A stretch of DNA of 32,000 nt from Idiomarina loihiensis L2TR (GTDB taxonomy: Bacteria > Pseudomonadota > Gammaproteobacteria > Enterobacterales > Alteromonadaceae). Location of the stretch: assembly GCF_000008465.1 (NCBI RefSeq), contig NC_006512.1:1680001-1712000 (forward strand). The letters are read 5' to 3'. Under the pieces are notes generated by a model. It was given only the letters and a program-made list of their open reading frames with translations. It made no database searches and had not been told where the DNA came from. Both the position numbers and the translations under genes were made by a program. Each line of letters opens with the position of its first letter. Positions within the stretch are counted from its first letter, which is position 1. Shown here piece by piece: positions 4,373 to 25,017 of this stretch.

Positions 4373-6687
4373 TAATTGGCCTCCTGTAAAGATTCAAAAT
4401 CAGGCATAGGGGGCAGTTGGTGAGTCCATTCTTTTGTTACCGGGTCACCTTTAGCAATAAGTTGCTCAACTTTGTCTACTCGCCCACCAATACGTAAAAA
4501 ACCGTCATCGGACACAAATTCACTAAACTCTGAATTTAAGTAGTCGACAGAATAGCCTCCATCGTTCTGCGGCAAGACTGCTAACGCCTTTCCTTTGGCG
4601 TTCAAAAAACGATATTTTCTTAAGAACTCACTCATAGCAACTTCAGCTTGCTGTTCGTCCCAGTCTTCCCCCAGCAAAGATTCAACCGGAATCATCCAGC
4701 TCTTTTCACCTAAGGCAATATCGACTGGCTGCCATTCCGGCTGCCCGTCACAACGAAGCTCTAAGGCTACTTCAGTATCATAAAAAAAACGCTGCACACC
4801 ATCGTCTGTCATTAATTGATAGACCACTTTTTTCGGCATTTTTAAATGCGAAACAACATTACGTCTATTGGGATCAGCGTTTTCTCTCATGACCCGCTTG
4901 TGTTTATTTCCCTTACTTTTAGCCTCGGTATTCAACTCACAAACACCCGCCTGTTCAGGGCTTAGAGTTAAGTACAGCTGAGCTCGGTCAAAACTGGTAG
5001 GCTCTAATTCATCCAATGTCGATGTCGAGAACTCAAGATCCCGGTCATTAACTGAGACTGCCATCTCATCCGACTTGAACAAAGGAACGGTATCAACCGG
5101 GGCAATTGAGGTATCACTTCTAAGCGTTTCTTCATCATAAAAAACAATTTTCTTCTCAGAAGTTTTATTGTCTGTAACACGGTTGAATTTAAGTTCAATT
5201 GTCTCAGGCAATTCGTCCTCAAAAGCTATTCTCAGAGTTACCGCATAGTCGCCTCGTTTGGCAATAGCTAAAGCGCGGCTCTCTGCACTAGATACCCAGT
5301 TAGGTGCCGATGCATCTGTGTCGTAATTTAAAACTGCCCGGCTAACCCCATTTATCTGACTATCGAAATAAGAGTCATTAGTGGCTGTTAATTTCAGTTC
5401 AAACTCTTTGTCCTTTTTAGTGGGAGTCAAAATCGCTTTAGCGCCATGCATTTCTATGCTCGAGCCGTCTTTATCTATTGGAAACTCAACAATTTCATAG
5501 CTTGTTTCATAGCGTTCCAGAGTCGCTTCTATTGATGTCATTTGCTCAAGATCATCAACGACATCTGTCCAGCCCAAAGGGAGTAAATGTATTAACGTTT
5601 CTGATTTTTCGTTACGACTGTCTGTATAGGTGAAAACCCCGTTTTCATGAAGCTTAATATCAAGAGCATCCCCTTTACTATCTTTAGCGATAAGGTCTTT
5701 CACTTTTATCGACATCGAGCCCATACTTTCAAAACTTACCCCGGGATGGCTATATGTCAAAGAAATACGACCGCCGTAAAAATCCATTTTTCCTGAGTCA
5801 TTAGCTAATACTTCTGCATCGGTCGCTTTGTTGTTTGAGTTAAGTTCGCTAAAGTCTGTATTATCGATGGTAAAAGGCTCGTCATAACCTAAATGCTCGA
5901 GGTTCTGACCATACAGCCAGTCTTCAGGGAAAATTGACGTCACCATTCGCATTGAGCCATCAGATACCGCAGCTTCTTCAGGAAGAGGCATATCCATAAT
6001 CATGGTTAAACGCTGAGTCCAGCCAGTGTCACGTTCCAGCACAACGTAGCCGAACACTTTTGCCTCATTATTTTCACCTGAAGCAGATAAGGTCACCGTG
6101 CTGTCAGTAAAGTCTTCAACCGTAAAGGTAATTTCAGGTAAAGGACTTTTGAGTTCTAAAACCTGAGTCGCGCCTTTTTCAACTTTTAAGTCATTAATAA
6201 AACCCGGGCGCCCCAACTCATCATTTAATATTTCCTGCAAAGGGTCTATTCCCTGCTTGCGGAAGTCCTCAGGCTCTTCATGAATAGTAAAGTCCACCAT
6301 TGCACTGGTGTCTTTATCAATATCAACCGTGAACCCGGCATCCATCATTTTCCGAATGCTATCGCCAGAACTTCCACGACCGTCATCTTCAAAGCTCGTG
6401 AAATCACCCTGAGGAAATTCCATCCTCATATACTGGGGTCTCATTCTTATACTGTAGATATCCGGTTTATCGGACACTTCATAGTCCAGTAACATCATAG
6501 TTTTGAGTCTTTCTGAACGGTTGCCGTAATGCTTACTCTCAACCTTGATGTTGGTATCCGAGTACATTTGATACCGTCGCTGCTCACCGTCATCGGGGTT
6601 AAACGATAAGGTCTTTGGAGGGCCGCTTTCAGAACAAGCTACAACAAGAAGAGCTGAAAAAGCCACGAATGATAGACGCCCTAACAT
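4372..6687 (-). CDS. Large lipoprotein, function unknown
   Basis: 771-aa ORF with signal peptide plus lipobox (MLGRLSFVAFSALLVVAC|SES). The stop TAA (4374-4372) shares nt 4372 with the ATG of the downstream MORN gene (TAATG overlap). I recognise no catalytic or family motif. Confidence 0.75.
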   Translation of the reverse strand: MLGRLSFVAFSALLVVACSESGPPKTLSFNPDDGEQRRYQMYSDTNIKVESKHYGNRSERLKTMMLLDYEVSDKPDIYSIRMRPQYMRMEFPQGDFTSFEDDGRGSSGDSIRKMMDAGFTVDIDKDTSAMVDFTIHEEPEDFRKQGIDPLQEILNDELGRPGFINDLKVEKGATQVLELKSPLPEITFTVEDFTDSTVTLSASGENNEAKVFGYVVLERDTGWTQRLTMIMDMPLPEEAAVSDGSMRMVTSIFPEDWLYGQNLEHLGYDEPFTIDNTDFSELNSNNKATDAEVLANDSGKMDFYGGRISLTYSHPGVSFESMGSMSIKVKDLIAKDSKGDALDIKLHENGVFTYTDSRNEKSETLIHLLPLGWTDVVDDLEQMTSIEATLERYETSYEIVEFPIDKDGSSIEMHGAKAILTPTKKDKEFELKLTATNDSYFDSQINGVSRAVLNYDTDASAPNWVSSAESRALAIAKRGDYAVTLRIAFEDELPETIELKFNRVTDNKTSEKKIVFYDEETLRSDTSIAPVDTVPLFKSDEMAVSVNDRDLEFSTSTLDELEPTSFDRAQLYLTLSPEQAGVCELNTEAKSKGNKHKRVMRENADPNRRNVVSHLKMPKKVVYQLMTDDGVQRFFYDTEVALELRCDGQPEWQPVDIALGEKSWMIPVESLLGEDWDEQQAEVAMSEFLRKYRFLNAKGKALAVLPQNDGGYSVDYLNSEFSEFVSDDGFLRIGGRVDKVEQLIAKGDPVTKEWTHQLPPMPDFESLQEAN

Positions 6688-6813
6688 AAGCTTCCTTAAA
6701 ATTTATAAATGAATATGAATAAAGTCATATGATAAGCAGTATTAAATTTTGGCTCAATACAGTCCTCAGGCCTTAACAGATTCTTTACACTGATAACTCA
6801 ATTAGGTGATTAC

Positions 6814-20917: not shown

Positions 20918-21323
20918 TACTTATTGCTCCTCAAGCGAGTTGACCTTTGCAGTATAAAAACGCTTAGCACACCTAATGAATAGTCTTTCACGTTAGCTGC
21001 TAATTCTGCATTGTTCCAGAAACAAGAATCGTATCTTTCTCAAACTAACCGAATAGTGGCCGGCAGTTTTGATGCTCACTTACCTCCGCAATATTGCTTA
21101 CTTTATTATTGTGTTGTGTATTTAACTCGTTTAAGGTCAATTACATAATAAAAACGAAAATTAGATATTGTGCACTCGTTAGACTAGAAATGAGCATGCT
21201 CGAATTGCTTTGCCTGCTTTCGGCGGGCTTTTTGAAAAATAAATTGAGTTATTAAAGGGTTCGAAGAAAAAAGAAGAAATTTAATGAAAGTCGAAGTGCG
21301 CATGCACAATATATAAATGTTAA

Positions 21324-21698
21324 ATGCCTATGAAAGCACCATGTCAATGCAAAGAATCTCCAGAGCTTGTCGACTTGAGCAAAGAGGGAAAGGAGCTCGT
21401 AGCGGAATTCTCAGAGTTAGATGTCGGCAACTGGGTTTACTTGATGAAATGCCCTACCTGCGGGCAGTTGTGGCGCGTGGATGAGTGGGACAAATACCAG
21501 CCGCAGTATGCCGTTAAGCTCCCTACTTCCGAGAATTGGCAAGCTTTTGAAGCAATTCCACTTATCAAGAAAAAGATAGTAGAAAACAGAGGTGGTATTT
21601 CGGAGCAGTTGTGCATGTGGCGCAATTGCAATGAAAAGCAGGTAAATGGTTCGGCTTTTTGCGTAGATCATCTGTACGAGACTGGTGCGCGAAGCTGA
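21324..21698 (+). CDS. Cassette 1: Cys-rich zinc-ribbon protein, unknown function
   Basis: 124-aa ORF (or 122 aa from the ATG at 21330). Cys pairs are CQC...CPTC (zinc-ribbon-like), and there is a C-terminal C-x4-C-x10-C-x2-H. No SD is visible. Confidence 0.6.
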   Translation: MPMKAPCQCKESPELVDLSKEGKELVAEFSELDVGNWVYLMKCPTCGQLWRVDEWDKYQPQYAVKLPTSENWQAFEAIPLIKKKIVENRGGISEQLCMWRNCNEKQVNGSAFCVDHLYETGARS

Positions 21699-21702
21699 AA
21701 GC

Positions 21703-21789
21703 ATTTAACCAATCAATTAAGTTCGTTCCCGGCCTGGCGGCCGTCCACCGGACACCCCTGACGGGCCGCCGCTTATTTCAGCGTTGTGC
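21703..21789 (+). repeat. attC site 1
   Basis: R'' is ATTTAAC (21703-09) and R' is GTTGTGC (21783-89). The inner boxes are AATTAAG and CTTATTT, with 5- and 4-nt spacers. The central GC-rich stem pairs GGCGGCCGTC with GACGGGCCGCC and has one extrahelical G. Confidence 0.8.
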
Positions 21790-21813
21790 TCAATATAACC
21801 AAAGGGGCGTTTA

Positions 21814-22599
21814 ATGTTTTCTGATTTGTTTGCTTCTAGTAGAAGTGTCTTTAAAGAACGTGTATCCAGCCCACTCTATGGGGCAATTGTTATTTCATGG
21901 TTATTATGGAACTGGCAAATTCCTTACTTAACACTGTTTGTAAGTGAGGAAAATCTTGATAGTGACAAAATATCCTGGATTGCTGAAAATCATAGCAACT
22001 GGGTGTTGTTAGTACTTTACCCTGCGCTCTCGGCATTCGCCCTTGTTCTTGTTATGCCATTCTTTACAAATGGTGCCTATTGGGTAAGTCTTCGATTCCG
22101 AAAATGGCGAATCGACTCACAACAATCCATAGAAAAGAAGACGCTCCTTACACTTGAACAGTCAATCGCTCTTCGGGAGGAAGTCCTGGCCCAGGAAGAG
22201 CGAATTGAAAAAATGCTCGAGGCAAAAAATCGAGAAATTAAGCAATTGAGCACTCAAATCGCAGATTTAGAGGATAGGTTGAAGTCAGAGGATGAATCAG
22301 AAGAAGCTAGACAGACTCGGACAGAAAAGCACAGCCCGCATTATGTAGATGATGATGAAAATGCCAAAGAACTGGCAAAGAAGATTTTTAATAGCCATAA
22401 GGCTAATAAAACCTTTGAGAAAGCAATAGAGTTTATTCAAGGTGGATATTCAGGCCTGCTTCAAGAGAATGAAGTCGACTCAAGGTCATTAGCGTTTCTT
22501 GAGGCTAATAACGTGATTGAAAACACTGGTGAAGGGCAGTACCGCTTTTCGGATTTTGGAAAGAAGGTTCTCCGAGTGTATACGGATTTTGAAATTTGA
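21814..22599 (+). CDS. Cassette 2: membrane-anchored coiled-coil protein, unknown function
   Basis: 261-aa ORF with an AAGGGG SD. It has two TM helices (YGAIVISWLLWNW and VLLVLYPALSAFALVLVMPFF) and a charged heptad-like segment (LEQSIALREEVLAQEERIEKMLEAKNREIKQLSTQIADLEDRLK). The C-terminal ~80-aa globular part has a winged-helix-like appearance. Confidence 0.7.
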   Translation: MFSDLFASSRSVFKERVSSPLYGAIVISWLLWNWQIPYLTLFVSEENLDSDKISWIAENHSNWVLLVLYPALSAFALVLVMPFFTNGAYWVSLRFRKWRIDSQQSIEKKTLLTLEQSIALREEVLAQEERIEKMLEAKNREIKQLSTQIADLEDRLKSEDESEEARQTRTEKHSPHYVDDDENAKELAKKIFNSHKANKTFEKAIEFIQGGYSGLLQENEVDSRSLAFLEANNVIENTGEGQYRFSDFGKKVLRVYTDFEI

Positions 22600-22604
22600 A
22601 AATG

Positions 22605-22696
22605 GCACAACAAAGGGCTCAACCGGACGTCGGAACAGGTTTGGCGGCAAAGCCTGGTAAACTCAGTTGCGGCGCCGGTTAGCCTAGACGTTACCT
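22605..22696 (+). repeat. attC site 2
   Basis: The layout is canonical. R'' is GCACAAC (22605-11), followed by a 4-5-nt spacer and L'' GGGCTCAACC (contains GCTCAAC at 22617-23). L' is GGTTAGCC (22677-84), followed by the 5-nt spacer TAGAC and R' GTTACCT (22690-96). Confidence 0.85.
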
Positions 22697-22709
22697 TTAT
22701 TGAGGAGGC

Positions 22710-23288
22710 ATGGTGGAAGCTAATTATTGGCAGTACTATCTTTCGTTTGAGGAAGATGTTGATCGCCTTTTTCGCTACATCGAACCCGCGGAGTACAACT
22801 TTACCGTTTACTCGGTAGAACTAACTCGGTTGTACTTGGCAATATGTTCCGAAATCGACGTAATACTAAAAGCATACTGCAAGCTCCTCGATGAGGGCTC
22901 TAAGCCGTCAAATATTAACGAATATGCGGAAATGGTCGTTTCATCGAAGAAAGGGTTGTGTTCTGAGACTGTCAATTTTCAGAGATTCGGAGTTTCAATG
23001 ACGCCATTTTCAGAGTGGAAGCAGTCGTCCACGCCAACTTGGTGGAAAAAGCATAATGGTGTAAAGCACAACCGGAACGTCAACTTTAAGGACGCTAATC
23101 TGGGTAACGTTCTCAACGCGTTTGCAGCATTGTACTTGCTAAACCTTTACTACTACCAAGAACGACGCTGTATCGAGCTGCAAGAACAAGGGTTCTCCGA
23201 GTCGCTCGAGGAAACGGCAGCTTCACTGAAGTCGCGTTTAGATGTACTTAGAATAGATAGTGTTTGGCTAAGCTTTATGGAAAGGTAA
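22710..23288 (+). CDS. Cassette 3: 192-aa helical protein with a W-W-K-K-H-N-G-V-K-H-N-R patch, unknown function
   Basis: The ORF has GAGGAGG immediately upstream, and its stop TAA is embedded in the attC inverse core (GGTAAC). There is no TM segment and no family assignment. Confidence 0.7.
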   Translation: MVEANYWQYYLSFEEDVDRLFRYIEPAEYNFTVYSVELTRLYLAICSEIDVILKAYCKLLDEGSKPSNINEYAEMVVSSKKGLCSETVNFQRFGVSMTPFSEWKQSSTPTWWKKHNGVKHNRNVNFKDANLGNVLNAFAALYLLNLYYYQERRCIELQEQGFSESLEETAASLKSRLDVLRIDSVWLSFMER

Positions 23289-23366
23289 CAAAGCCAATCA
23301 CGGCGACGCCCGCTACATTTCGGCTTCGTCTTTATTTCGTAGCCGCGCATGTTGGCGGCGTTATAC
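23283..23366 (+). repeat. attC site 3
   Basis: R'' is AGGTAAC (23283-89), followed by spacer AAAGC and L'' CCAATCA... L' is ...CATGTTGG, followed by spacer CGGC and R' GTTATAC (23360-66). An internal CGCTAC/GTAGCCG stem is present. Confidence 0.8.
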
Positions 23367-23381
23367 ACAAAGGATTAAGCA

Positions 23382-24407
23382 ATGGAGTCAATTCCACCAT
23401 ACGAAGGAAAACCTACTGTTTACCTTGATCAGAATGTTTTAGATTTCTTCACGAAACAAGGATTGGGTGAGTTTGGGCAAATGCTTTTAGAAGATTATCA
23501 AGTAGTTTACTCAGATGAAACACTCAAGGAAATTCGGCGTTCTAAAGGTTTTGAAGAAAACTTTCTCAACGTACTCAAAGATCTGAAAGCTTACCATTTA
23601 AAGCTAATTGTTGAGCAGCCAAACTTCACGATCACCGACAACGCCACAATATGTAAACGTGATCCTTATGATATCTATAAGCAGTACTGTGAAAGTTGTG
23701 ACGATGGTCTCGACATAGAATATGCAATGCAACAATCATTGTTCAAGTTTTCTGGTGGAAGAAAGGGGGAAAGTCTTAACGATATTCATAACGAACAGGT
23801 CGCCGCATTCTCCGAGCTAATGGATTCATTAATGGATATCTCTGACGAGTTACCTGAAGAGATACAAAAACAATTGCAAGTCTATGGTGAGGAGATGACT
23901 TCTCAATACAAAGCAACATTAGCAAAAACTGAAAATATGATGCTTGAGAGTATTGAAGATGATAGAAATTGGGATGGTATTAAAGACTTCCGGTTAGCGC
24001 TCGGAATTGGTCCCATGCAACTTAATAATATTGATCCGCCGGATGTACTTGTAAAAATTTGGGATAAACTAAGAGCGCTCCCAGCTTATAGTCAAGCAAA
24101 CATGGATATAGAAGATTTTTTTCAATTAAAAAAGCATCCGATTTACCCAGAGCAACCTTACTTCAAGCACCAAAAAGTGACGGTTATTTATAATATGCTA
24201 AATACTTTGGGATATTATCCAGACTCAAAAGTACACAAAGAAAGACGGTTCATTGCTGCTGTAAGTGATAACAGTCACGCATCCATAGCCTCATTTTGTA
24301 ATTTCCTCGTGTCCAACGATGAATACTTTATTAAAAAGGTTAATGCCGCATATGAATATCTTGAAGTGCCAACAATAGCAAATCAGGTGGTTTTCAATTA
24401 TGCATAA
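23382..24407 (+). CDS. Cassette 4: 341-aa protein with split PIN-like nuclease signature
   Basis: AAGGA SD 7 nt upstream of the ATG. The N-terminus reads PTVYLDQNVLDFF, followed by VVYSDETLKEI (first Asp and Glu of a PIN fold). The C-terminus reads AAVSDNSHASIASFCNFLVSNDEYFIKK, matching the PIN pattern D-x3-a-x2-A-x6-LV(T/S)-x-D-x2-F with 17-residue D-to-D spacing. About 240 aa of unassigned sequence lies between them. Confidence 0.7.
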   Translation: MESIPPYEGKPTVYLDQNVLDFFTKQGLGEFGQMLLEDYQVVYSDETLKEIRRSKGFEENFLNVLKDLKAYHLKLIVEQPNFTITDNATICKRDPYDIYKQYCESCDDGLDIEYAMQQSLFKFSGGRKGESLNDIHNEQVAAFSELMDSLMDISDELPEEIQKQLQVYGEEMTSQYKATLAKTENMMLESIEDDRNWDGIKDFRLALGIGPMQLNNIDPPDVLVKIWDKLRALPAYSQANMDIEDFFQLKKHPIYPEQPYFKHQKVTVIYNMLNTLGYYPDSKVHKERRFIAAVSDNSHASIASFCNFLVSNDEYFIKKVNAAYEYLEVPTIANQVVFNYA

Positions 24408-24461
24408 CAAAGCGTTTAAGCAAAGACGCAGCCAGCTGCGTCACTTATCTTTGCGTTACAA
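24402..24461 (+). repeat. attC site 4 (short; 3' boundary less certain)
   Basis: R'' is GCATAAC (24402-08) and overlaps the stop codon. The stem pairs GCAAAGACGCAG with CTGCGTCACTTATCTTTGC, with bulged bases. The R' candidate is GTTACAA (24455-61). An alternative pairing of the two CAAAG copies makes the box assignment ambiguous. Confidence 0.6.
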
Positions 24462-24480
24462 ACAACCGGAGTCTTAAGCT

Positions 24481-24861
24481 ATGAATCTGAACCAGGTCAC
24501 CTTGCCCGTCACCAATATGGAAAAGGCTACGGAGTTCTATCGCAAGATGGGGTTCCTTCAAATTGTAGATACTCCACACTACGCCAGATTTGAATGCCCG
24601 GAGGGAACGTCGACGTTCTCCCTTTCATTGGATGATTCTGGGGGTTCAAATAAGAGCGTGATTTATTTTGAACACCAAGAGCTTGACGACCTTGTTGCCG
24701 AGTTGAAGTCCAAAGGACTTGAATTTGATCAAGAGCCAACGGATATGCGGTACTTATGGCGCGAGGCCATACTCCATGATCCCTCCGGCAACAAAATCAA
24801 ACTGTACTGGGCAGGTGAGAATCGTCTAAATCCGCCGTGGCGAGTTGAGCTCGGTGCATAA
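24481..24861 (+). CDS. Cassette 5: VOC-family (glyoxalase / bleomycin-resistance / dioxygenase fold) protein
   Basis: 126-aa ORF with a GGAG SD. It shows the beta-alpha-beta-beta-beta module pattern (VTLPVTNMEKATEFYRKMGF ... ILHDPSGNKIKLY) typical of the VOC superfamily. Confidence 0.8.
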   Translation: MNLNQVTLPVTNMEKATEFYRKMGFLQIVDTPHYARFECPEGTSTFSLSLDDSGGSNKSVIYFEHQELDDLVAELKSKGLEFDQEPTDMRYLWREAILHDPSGNKIKLYWAGENRLNPPWRVELGA

Positions 24862-24932
24862 CAAACCAATGTTGGCTGCCTCGGAAGCGTGGTACACGCA
24901 CAAATAATAACTCTGCCCGACAGTAGTTAAAA
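24856..24932 (+). repeat. attC site 5 (distal, degenerate; 3' boundary uncertain)
   Basis: R'' is GCATAAC (24856-62), followed by spacer AAACC and L'' AATGTTGGC. The central hairpin is GCGTG-gta-CACGC. L' is GCCCGACA and the R' candidate is GTTAAAA (24926-32). Confidence 0.5.
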
Positions 24933-25017
24933 CTCTGAAGGCCGTAATTAATTGGTATTCAAGCCCTGAGTTTCAGGTTGGTGACATTCGTTCAGGACAA
25001 ATTGTGGTGAAGACTCA

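Follow-up and report, generated by a model that had tools for sequence, protein, structure and literature searches.

Compact defence genes are abundant among the integron cassettes that lack an assigned function, and most such cassettes are still orphans. About one third of the tested cassettes of this kind protect against phage, including Cosus, HEPN-AbiU2 and small transmembrane proteins, and about two thirds do not. Cosus (Brc24), carried by mobile integrons, is an anti-phage cassette with a single gene of the PIN_12 type, and its defence is abolished by the D14A substitution (bioRxiv 10.1101/2024.07.02.601719). An HEPN-AbiU2 cassette of V. mimicus is also among the phage-defending cassettes (bioRxiv 10.64898/2026.03.17.712381). 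The interval between gpA and gpQ of P2-like prophages is a validated defence hotspot, where defence genes dominate (PMC9122126).

The window analysed here is a 32-kb stretch of the Idiomarina loihiensis chromosome, corresponding to ~1.69–1.71 Mb of the GSL199 record CP005964.1. A sequence-only reading of it had picked out three consecutive open reading frames as candidate defence genes and had pointed to precedents for defence cassettes. The open reading frames are present on the + strand where it had placed them, P1 at 21814–22599 (261 aa), P2 at 22710–23288 (192 aa) and P3 at 23382–24407 (341 aa), and the precedents exist, as PIN_12, HEPN and transmembrane types all have experimental phage defence. 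All three are gene cassettes bounded by attC sites and without promoters, unrelated to one another and of unassigned function. The chances appear about even that each is a self-contained accessory conflict gene, i.e. an anti-phage defence gene or an abortive-infection-type toxin; an anti-phage role is plausible, and strongest for P3 of the three candidates. Some homologues of P1–P3 belong to cassette arrays, and others adjoin defence genes or fill accessory slots of prophages, an observation made on individual loci.

Cassette boundaries and the integrase-less array

Cassettes were delimited by attC sites with an R'' core (RYYYAAC) and an R' core (GTTRRRY), the cassette starting between the G and the TT of the latter. 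The AAC and GTT cores are at the expected places in all five cassettes, each on the + strand. Cassette 1 (21319..21783), which lies outside of the finding, has its R' core GTTAAAT at 21319–25 overlapping the ATG of ORF0 (21324–21698), a Cys-rich 124 aa sequence without a family match; its attC runs from R'' ATTTAAC (21703–09) to R' GTTGTGC (21783–89). The P1 cassette (21784..22690) carries R' GTTGTGC at 21783–89 and R'' GCACAAC at 22605–11, and its attC (22605–22696) extends from GCACAAC to R' GTTACCT. The 670 bp P2 cassette (22691..23360) carries R' GTTACCTTT at 22690–98 and R'' AAAGGTAAC at 23281–89; in its attC (23283–23366) the R'' core AGGTAAC overlaps the TAA stop codon and the R' core is GTTATAC. 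The 1095 bp P3 cassette (23361..24455) has R' GTTATAC at 23360–66 and R'' GCATAAC at 24402–08, and here too the R'' of the attC (60 nt, 24402–24461, R' GTTACAA) overlaps the TAA stop. Cassette 5 (24456..24990), also outside of the finding, contains an open reading frame with a VOC/glyoxalase fold (24481–24861) and R'' GCATAAC at 24856–62; its attC has a degenerate 3' end that is not confidently placed.

The R' core of a cassette matches the reverse complement of its own R'' core at 7/7 positions in cassette 1, 7/7 in P1, 9/9 in P2 and 6/7 in P3, and the rule is valid in all five cassettes, both flanking ones included. Such complementarity within a cassette is the footprint of circular-cassette recombination. 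A candidate attC for ORF0 beginning with GCGCGAAGC was dropped for ATTTAAC...GTTGTGC on the basis of this rule.

Homology to other genomes breaks off at the same places. By BLASTN, the P3 cassette aligns with DNA of Psychrobium, Shewanella and Paraglaciecola (84%) from 23355–23361 to 24409–24419, with breakpoints at the cores in six loci of 78–85% identity, and the P2 cassette aligns with a Shewanella locus (L010) over exactly 22691–23291. The R'/R'' signature is present in 18 of 33 P3-family loci (this window counted), and the core pairs covary within the family: GTTATGC/GCATAAC, GTTATAC/GTATAAC and GTTACAC/GTGTAAC. The attC bottom strands after P1 and P3 form end-paired hairpins, but the folding z-scores of the attC sites are modest (−1.8, −1.6, −1.2), and the TAACAAAS motif, with 9 observed vs 3.8 expected, is too weak as attC evidence. 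As motif counts and hairpin energy are too weak, the attC evidence rests on the comparative breakpoints instead. The earlier claim of a separate attC for every gene is thus borne out by core complementarity, by breakpoints and by the signature in the P3 family.

The P2 and P3 cassettes contain one open reading frame each. The distance from the R' core to the ATG is just 20–30 nt in the P1, P2 and P3 cassettes, and a promoter scan of the array was at chance level.

The array is of the CALIN type, with five same-strand cassettes in the I. loihiensis chromosome, P1–P3 being the middle three. A CALIN is reportedly a cluster of attC sites lacking an integron integrase, by the IntegronFinder definition credited to Cury and colleagues in 2016. 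Neither tblastn with VchIntIA nor Pfam searches of neighbour genes detected an integrase in the 32-kb window or six I. loihiensis contigs (L001–L006), and the flanks are free of intI for 20 kb on one side of the array and for 7 kb on the other. The feature of a complete integron, intI with an adjacent attI, is accordingly absent from these sequences, and the promoterless cassettes with R''/R' cores agree with a CALIN; unlike a clear CALIN, the array displays individually weak attC hairpins (z −1.2 to −1.8) and a degenerate last attC.

The six contigs compared carry the array with 100% identity, gene order is constant in each contig shown, and the array is fixed in the I. loihiensis chromosome. 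With no integrase nearby and no variation among six contigs, it could be a relic. The cassettes had been called independently mobile, and historically this stands, as they are attC-bounded with breakpoints at cores, but present mobility does not demonstrably follow for an integrase-less array that is identical in L001–L006. A P3 cassette of Psychrobium is situated 6 kb from an IntI with 60% identity to VchIntIA.

Known families and the independence of the three genes

Searches with P1, P2 and P3 of Pfam, NCBIfam, PADLOC and PDB gave nothing significant; PDB profile searches returned coiled-coil or apolipoprotein noise only. The lack of a defence-HMM match in PADLOC had been foreseen in the sequence-only reading. 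The best PADLOC-DB v2 matches among the three proteins are PbeC (E-value = 0.001, coiled-coil region only) and PDC-S06 (E-value = 0.009), with none for P2. P1 and P2 match PHROG families, all of unknown function.

The three genes are independently captured single-gene modules and not an operon; the sequence-only reading, too, had thought single-gene systems the more probable. Each has its own phylogenetic distribution. In none of ~95 loci outside I. loihiensis are two of the three families found together, no neighbour is common to the 32 P3-family loci, and there are likewise no conserved neighbours around the P2-family loci examined. The genes are adjacent, on the same strand and never separated in the I. 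loihiensis contigs examined, as would be expected of one cooperating system in which a membrane sensor works with two nucleases. However, separate attC sites, independent distributions and above all the lack of co-occurrence effectively refute such a system, which retains hardly any probability. Since they share a strand and are promoterless, P1, P2 and P3 would be co-transcribed, from upstream in the array and without cooperation.

P1 and P2, families shared with phages

P1 had been described as a membrane coiled-coil protein, and the predictions agree: a strong transmembrane segment at 61–85, a weaker hydrophobic helix at 21–43, and a coiled coil at ~105–160 (weak SlyX/CC matches) followed by an acidic linker. 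The sequence carries a conserved juxtamembrane motif, LLTLEQSIxLRE, and ends in a small winged-helix-like domain (199–257). The N-terminus is conserved in the family and the C-terminus is variable, and the N-terminal domain is common to five PHROG families. Homologues are found as two cassettes of the V. cholerae superintegron and in flavobacterial cassette arrays. P1 resembles Deva, the octameric BrcWGS21 and the small TM cassette of V. vulnificus in being the membrane-anchored product of a single-gene cassette, and its relatives are prophage morons; the likeness is one of architecture and setting. Unlike these, it also has a coiled coil on the cytoplasmic side and a winged-helix-like domain at the C-terminus that varies. 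P1 may be an inner-membrane protein with both termini cytoplasmic, in which the conserved TM/juxtamembrane module would serve as effector or anchor and the variable cytoplasmic C-terminal domain as specificity element. Action at the membrane would be by injection block or cell depolarisation.

P2 belongs to a family of 4,761 clusters. The AF2 model is all alpha (pLDDT 92), and residues C46, E48, D50, W111, W112, N116, V118, K119, H120, R122, A129, N130 and L131 are invariant, those from N116 to R122 forming the motif [H/Y]-N-x-V-K-H-x-R (N116-x-V118-K119-H120-x-R122). Of the description of P2 as an RNase-like helical protein, the helical part stands. The RNase part is not secured: the HEPN motif Rx4-6H is absent from the family, with no conserved Arg 4–6 residues before H120 and H or Y at the position where the Arg is expected, and none of 22 family members matches a Pfam HEPN family. 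The best PDB fold matches are HEPN toxins (8xdj, 8xeh, 8yuf, 7bxo), with Foldseek E-values of 1.5–8 and TM-scores of 0.32–0.58, which is noise level; one BFVD HEPN protein gives E = 2.3. P2 is similar to HEPN toxins such as HepT of MNT-HEPN and the V. mimicus HEPN-AbiU2 in being small, all-helical and found in cassettes and prophages, and one P2 lineage forms an antitoxin-first bicistron. It differs in the missing Rx4-6H, the weak TM-scores (0.35–0.48) and E-values above 1. P2 is possibly a very divergent HEPN-type RNase, and it may act as a compact toxin-like effector of helical fold, with a site formed by E-x-D and N-x-V-K-H-x-R.

A P2 homologue in V. parahaemolyticus is an integron cassette near a Shedu (SduA_C) cassette, and the neighbours of other family members include a NACHT protein and, elsewhere, DUF4238 and TIGR02391 proteins. 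Both families are also carried by phages. Relatives of P1 are opposite-strand morons of temperate phages, in the terminase/portal gap or the nin region, and those of P2 are opposite-strand morons in at least three phage lineages, with relatives in thirty IMG/VR loci and in a C. botulinum prophage. This distribution, together with the PHROG matches, is what would be seen if P1–P3 served phages, as lysogenic-conversion, superinfection-exclusion or anti-defence factors later captured as cassettes. We regard such a role as improbable, and in part it overlaps with the conflict-gene reading, since a prophage that excludes superinfecting phages is already defending against phage. An anti-defence role explains neither stable carriage in integrase-less chromosomal arrays nor the presence of a P3 relative in the gpA-gpQ hotspot dominated by defence genes.

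In one P2 lineage (L090) a ParD antitoxin gene is situated 15 nt upstream of the P2-family gene, and in L101 a P2-like gene is appended to BrnT-BrnA in an operon on a small plasmid. PIN domains are the classic VapC toxins, which show the VapBC arrangement in the plasmid genes compared, and TA cassettes are common in chromosomal integrons. These points would fit P2 and/or P3 as toxin-type addiction genes, TA-like or remnants of TA systems, which stabilise arrays, plasmids and prophages and do not stop phages. We consider this unlikely: the P2 (670 bp) and P3 (1095 bp) cassettes have no room for an antitoxin gene, and no small upstream gene is conserved in ~35 P2-family or 32 P3-family loci. A conserved upstream antitoxin was rejected as a general feature of the P2 family, a linked antitoxin being absent from ~30 other loci. 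TA and abortive-infection functions are moreover compatible and not exclusive. As conflict genes, P2 and P3 would be lone toxins without an antitoxin, and such toxins must be self-regulated, a point to be set against that reading.

P3, a putative split PIN-like nuclease

The sequence motifs and the predicted structure of P3 suggest a split PIN nuclease. The putative core consists of beta1-D16 (YLDQN), S44/T47/E50 (YSDETLKE), D296 (SDNSHA) and D313 (LVSNDEYF), and is interrupted by a helical insert of ~200 aa. Acidic residues D16, E50 (also E46), D296 and D313 are invariant in 33 family sequences. Strands predicted at 12–15, 40–43 and 308–311 precede acidic residues, and the strand/helix order of the model agrees with PIN topology. 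Foldseek gives local matches to the PIN domains of SMG6, Utp24, VapC4 and AF0591, with probabilities of 0.5–0.87 and E-values of 0.3 or above.

P3 was compared by hhalign with a VapC alignment made from eight annotated plasmid genes, using as queries the whole sequence, the sequence with the insert removed, and the N-terminal and C-terminal halves. Only the N-terminal 40 residues align, with E = 0.01–0.02 and a probability of 2–4%, placing D16 and E50 on D7 and E42 of VapC (YLDQN...SDETLKE onto MLDTN...SSVTLME); the C-terminal half is left unaligned, although by eye its SD..HA...LVSND..F resembles the VapC pattern PxD..IAGHA...LVTNN..EF. P3 differs from VapC in being 2.5 times longer and without a VapB-like antitoxin. 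No PIN family in Pfam is matched at E ≤ 1 by P3 or any of the 33 family members. The earlier designation as PIN-like is thus plausible from acidic motifs and weak local fold matches, with no significant PIN profile match in Pfam, NCBIfam or PDB.

Set beside Cosus (Brc24) by description, P3 is likewise a single-gene cassette with an N-terminal Asp (invariant D16 vs D14 in Cosus); it differs in having no Pfam PIN_12 match (P3 and 32 relatives, E ≤ 1) and in its 341 aa length with the ~200 aa insert in the predicted core. P3 may be a Mg2+-dependent PIN-like nuclease with D16/E50/D296/D313 as catalytic tetrad, and the large helical insert would hold the nuclease inactive until a phage cue.

A relative of P3, WP_033548893.1 (311 aa, 27% identity, E-value = 9e-27), retains all four acidic residues. 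It stands alone between gpA and gpQ of P2-like prophages in E. coli M10 and three further genomes, and also in phage record OU784746.1. Accessory genes of this hotspot include old, tin and a DUF4238 system, and the report on it neither tested nor named the P3 family (PMC9122126). Literature searches returned nothing on WP_033548893 or on Idiomarina integrons. Other P3 homologues adjoin a type II CBASS, a mad3/mad8/ATPase-Toprim-like (OLD/PARIS-type) protein and SIR2_2. SIR2_2 as an obligate partner of P3 was rejected, as it is found in one Morganella element only, the L086 locus being the same DNA (94.7% identity).

The P3 family also has many housekeeping genes as neighbours. Most integron cassettes have no known function, ~2/3 of those tested are not protective, and the cassettes flanking P1–P3 encode a glyoxalase and a Cys-rich orphan in an array that is invariant and integrase-less. 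All this would agree with P1–P3 being ordinary non-defence cargo, niche-adaptive or near-neutral, stockpiled in a decaying CALIN, with presence in prophages and islands reflecting general mobility. This seems rather unlikely to us. Such cargo would hardly be expected to stand alone in the gpA-gpQ hotspot, as the P3 relative does, to occupy moron positions in several phage lineages, as relatives of P1 and P2 do, to conserve a nuclease-like acidic tetrad down to 27% identity, or, in one P2 relative, to have an antitoxin partner.

Starting from the reading of P1–P3 as conflict genes, a more specific proposal can be made tentatively. P3 would be the founder of an undescribed single-gene anti-phage nuclease family, with a split PIN-like core and members moving between the gpA-gpQ hotspot of P2-like prophages and integron cassettes spread over five phyla or more (Pseudomonadota, Verrucomicrobiota, Chlorobiota, Desulfobacterota and Bacteroidota). 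P2 would be a non-HEPN helical toxin neutralisable by ParD and P1 a membrane module with swappable cytoplasmic sensors, both of them new effector families.

Three anonymous open reading frames thus become three defined, widespread single-gene families with precise mobile-unit boundaries. In each family candidate active-site residues are conserved, and the genomic context links each independently to phage conflict. The P3 family is directly testable, as its E. coli homologue is found alone in a validated defence hotspot. If the proposal were refuted, this would call for caution wherever cassette or hotspot context is the sole ground for assuming defence. If it is true for P3, the defence catalogue would gain a new type of nuclease architecture, and an exchange of genes between integrons and prophage hotspots would be documented.

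The five-cassette array and its boundaries

The segment 21814–24407 of the window contains exactly three + strand open reading frames, as the sequence-only reading had described. These are P1 (21814–22599, + strand, 261 aa), P2 (22710–23288, + strand, 192 aa) and P3 (23382–24407, + strand, 341 aa). I. loihiensis hypothetical proteins match P1 and P3 with 100% identity. By sequence comparison the three are integron cassettes, and this is settled by core complementarity, by homology breakpoints and by an R′/R″ signature found across the P3 family. Taken alone, the attC hairpin prediction is weak (z = −1.2 to −1.8), and the count of TAACAAAS motifs is unconvincing as attC evidence.

In each cassette the initial GTT core (R′) is the reverse complement of its own 3′ AAC core (R″). 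The pairs are GTTGTGC (21783–89) and GCACAAC (22605–11) for P1, GTTACCTTT (22690–98) and AAAGGTAAC (23281–89) for P2, and GTTATAC (23360–66) and GCATAAC (24402–08) for P3, the last being complementary at 6/7 positions. DNA homologues of the P3 cassette in Psychrobium, three Shewanella species, Paraglaciecola and Colwellia (78–85%) start at 23355–23361 and end at 24409–24419, and the P2 cassette is homologous to one Shewanella locus over 22691–23291; flanking sequences are unrelated in both cases. An R′ approximately 22 nt 5′ of the ATG together with an R″ over the stop codon is present in 18 of 33 P3-family loci, the window counted in, and some loci display covarying R′/R″ variants. The Psychrobium copy of P3 is situated 6 kb from an IntI with 60% identity to VchIntIA.

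The attC at the 3′ side of P2 (23286–23367) shares 83% identity over 83 nt with positions 302–384 of an array locus (L045) in an Alcanivoracaceae MAG, which suggests an attC type common to distant hosts.

Two additional cassettes flank the three. On the 5′ side is ORF0, an orphan Cys-rich 124 aa open reading frame (21324–21698, + strand), whose R′ (GTTAAAT) overlaps the ATG and whose R″ (ATTTAAC) is at 21703–09. On the 3′ side is an open reading frame with a VOC/glyoxalase fold (24481–24861, + strand; Pfam 3.5e-14). Thus the array consists of five cassettes, not three. The surrounding genes are chromosomal and comprise TonB-dependent receptors, FecR/ECF sigma, a metallo-beta-lactamase-fold protein and PepSY. 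There is no integrase among the neighbouring genes in the window, and tblastn with V. cholerae IntIA gave no match in either the window or the six I. loihiensis-type contigs examined. These six contigs carry the array at 100% identity and, in each contig displayed, with its genes in the same order; the GSL199 counterpart of the window is found at ~1.69–1.71 Mb of the I. loihiensis chromosome CP005964.1. On these sequence comparisons the array is a five-cassette CALIN (cluster of attC sites without integron integrase).

Only 20–30 nt separate R′ from the ATG in the cassettes, therefore transcription must come from upstream. A promoter scan of the array was uninformative. The 400 bp 5′ of the first cassette (20918–21323) display a 14-nt inverted repeat (21161–74/21303–16) and a terminator-like hairpin (21212–28); possible readings are an attC or attI remnant and the promoter region of the array.

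P3, a putative split PIN-like nuclease

For P3, searches against Pfam, NCBIfam, PADLOC and PDB profiles were negative. Conservation within the P3 family is tight (mean column identity 59%), and its invariant residues include D16 (YLDQN), S44/E46/T47/E50 (YSDETLKE), D296 (SDNSHA) and D313 (LxSxDxxF). In the AF2 model (pLDDT 86) the conserved residues follow strands E12–15, E40–43 and E308–311, and a largely helical insert of ~200 residues lies between these strands. A Foldseek search with the whole of P3 gave no significant match. The alpha/beta matches are all to PIN domains, i.e. SMG6/EST1A, Utp24, P. horikoshii VapC4 and AF0591, with probabilities of 0.5–0.87 and E-values of 0.3–1.5. When P3 was compared by hhalign with an alignment of eight annotated plasmid vapC genes, P3 positions 13–52 alone aligned, with VapC positions 4–44 (E-value = 0.01–0.02, probability 2–4%); the catalytic VapC residues D7 and E42 correspond to D16 and E50 of P3. 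Because of the conserved residues, the Foldseek PIN matches and the placement of D16 and E50, P3 is best read as a putative split PIN-like nuclease, an assignment that is plausible.

The case for P3 as a defence gene is carried above all by genomic context. In P2-like prophages a P3 homologue (27% identity, E-value = 9e-27) with all four acidic residues is the sole gene between gpA (replication endonuclease) and gpQ (portal); carriers are phage record OU784746.1, E. coli M10 (WP_033548893.1) and three further genomes. The gpA–gpQ interval is an experimentally validated defence hotspot of P2 (PMC9122126). In a Labilibaculum MAG (L043, 2239–7064) a type II CBASS operon with an E1-E2/JAB fusion (E-value = 0) is directly followed by a P3 homologue, and in Ferrimonas futtsuensis (L023) the homologue adjoins a 755 aa mad3/mad8/ATPase-Toprim-like protein. 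Morganella morganii (L015/L016, 4386–7044) carries, in an island beside icd, a 517 aa SIR2_2 gene followed after 62 bp by a P3 homologue, and the same 3.25-kb pair is found in an IMG/VR viral contig (L086) with 94.7% identity. The SIR2_2 pairing is specific to the Morganella lineage and is not kept across the family. Many other neighbours of P3-family genes are housekeeping genes, in a tally made without a background control.

P1 and P2

P1 shows a strong transmembrane segment (61–85) and a weaker one (21–43). Both segments are flanked by basic residues at their cytoplasmic ends and are joined by an acidic loop, a pattern that suggests an N-in/C-in topology. The earlier label of membrane coiled-coil protein is right for P1. 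Family members are conserved over their first 145 residues, in which the motif LLTLEQSIxLRE lies, and vary in the linker and C-terminal domain, of which there are at least two alternative types. The P1 C-terminus has weak matches to an SSO1393-like/Crn1 winged-helix domain (E-values = 0.009 and 0.006).

The N-terminal domain is common to five PHROG families (best E-value = 2.5e-15). Temperate phages EC.W1-9 and BUCT711 have a P1-type gene between terminase and portal genes, and temperate phage KO-TP1 has one in the nin region; in each case it lies on the opposite strand. P1 homologues also form two bona fide VCR-flanked cassettes in the V. cholerae superintegron; on chromosome 2 (CP053814.1) two identical copies (L007 and L008, each 6001–6771) are ~36 kb apart, and one V. 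cholerae copy is five cassettes from intIA. attC-flanked homologues are present in flavobacterial arrays. The suf Fe-S cluster operon of Flavobacterium plurextorum (CP100442.1; L089, 4642–6756) is interrupted in its middle by two opposite-strand genes, a P1 homologue and one with a beta-lactamase fold. The conserved module, variable domain and moron positions fit a putative membrane-acting exclusion or abortive-infection protein.

P2 yields a confident all-helical AF2 model (pLDDT 92) and belongs to a very large family (4,761 clusters at 50% identity, E ≤ 1e-3) of mostly standalone proteins of ~190 aa, for which there is no Pfam model. Invariant C46-x-E48-x-D50 lies on a long helix, and a second invariant motif is W111-W112-x3-N116-x-V-K119-H120-x-R122. 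The recurrent top fold matches are HEPN toxins. These are at noise level and the HEPN Rx4–6H motif is absent from the family, therefore the proposed RNase-like/HEPN membership of P2 is not supported.

IMG/VR yielded 30 loci with P2 relatives, which in at least three phage lineages are placed as morons on the opposite strand, and a C. botulinum prophage also carries a relative. Among the cassettes of the V. parahaemolyticus integron is a P2 homologue, two positions away from a Shedu (SduA_C) cassette, and in a Shewanella locus a relative adjoins a NACHT/AAA protein of >2,100 aa. The Delftia acidovorans plasmid locus (L103, NZ_CP065697.1, 289511–297894) looks like a small defence island, with the order TIGR02391 protein, P2-family gene, DUF4238 beside a tyrosine recombinase (integrase). 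DUF4238 is a validated anti-T7 gene (PMC9122126). In TARA metagenome scaffold L090 (5719–6576) an 88 aa ParD antitoxin gene (5719–5985) is followed after 15 nt by a P2-family gene (48% identity to P2). The two form an isolated, self-contained bicistron with a GMC oxidoreductase gene on one side and polA on the other, and the P2-family protein is a candidate new toxin partner of ParD. A truncated P2-family gene on an Acinetobacter variabilis plasmid (L101, NZ_CP083661.1, 1272–2287) shares 8 nt with the end of brnA in a BrnT-BrnA-P2-like operon followed by ISAba22. P0321, a 420 aa P2-family protein, is a fusion with an N-terminal Nmad2 (nucleotide-modification-associated) domain (Pfam 5.7e-56). 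Taken together, the settings of P2 relatives speak for a toxic effector, but most P2-family copies, P2 of the window included, have no antitoxin gene beside them.

Three modules and their possible role

The view of P1, P2 and P3 as independent single-gene cassettes, three modules and not one system, is well supported by core pairing, homology breakpoints and the lack of co-occurrence: among ~95 loci fetched, no locus outside I. loihiensis holds two of the three families. ORF clustering showed no conserved neighbour for P3 (32 loci) or P2 (~35 loci).

When mobile-integron cassettes of unknown function were tested, approximately one third gave anti-phage protection, among them Cosus, a PIN_12 protein inactive as the D14A mutant, and membrane proteins, e.g. 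Deva (10.1101/2024.07.02.601719). An HEPN-AbiU2 cassette and a small transmembrane cassette came out of screens of chromosomal integrons (10.64898/2026.03.17.712381). The P1, P2 and P3 families are named in neither study, and a literature search for WP_033548893 or Idiomarina integrons found nothing. Drawn entirely from context and precedent, a defence role for P1, P2 and P3 is a reasonable hypothesis, and it is strongest for P3.
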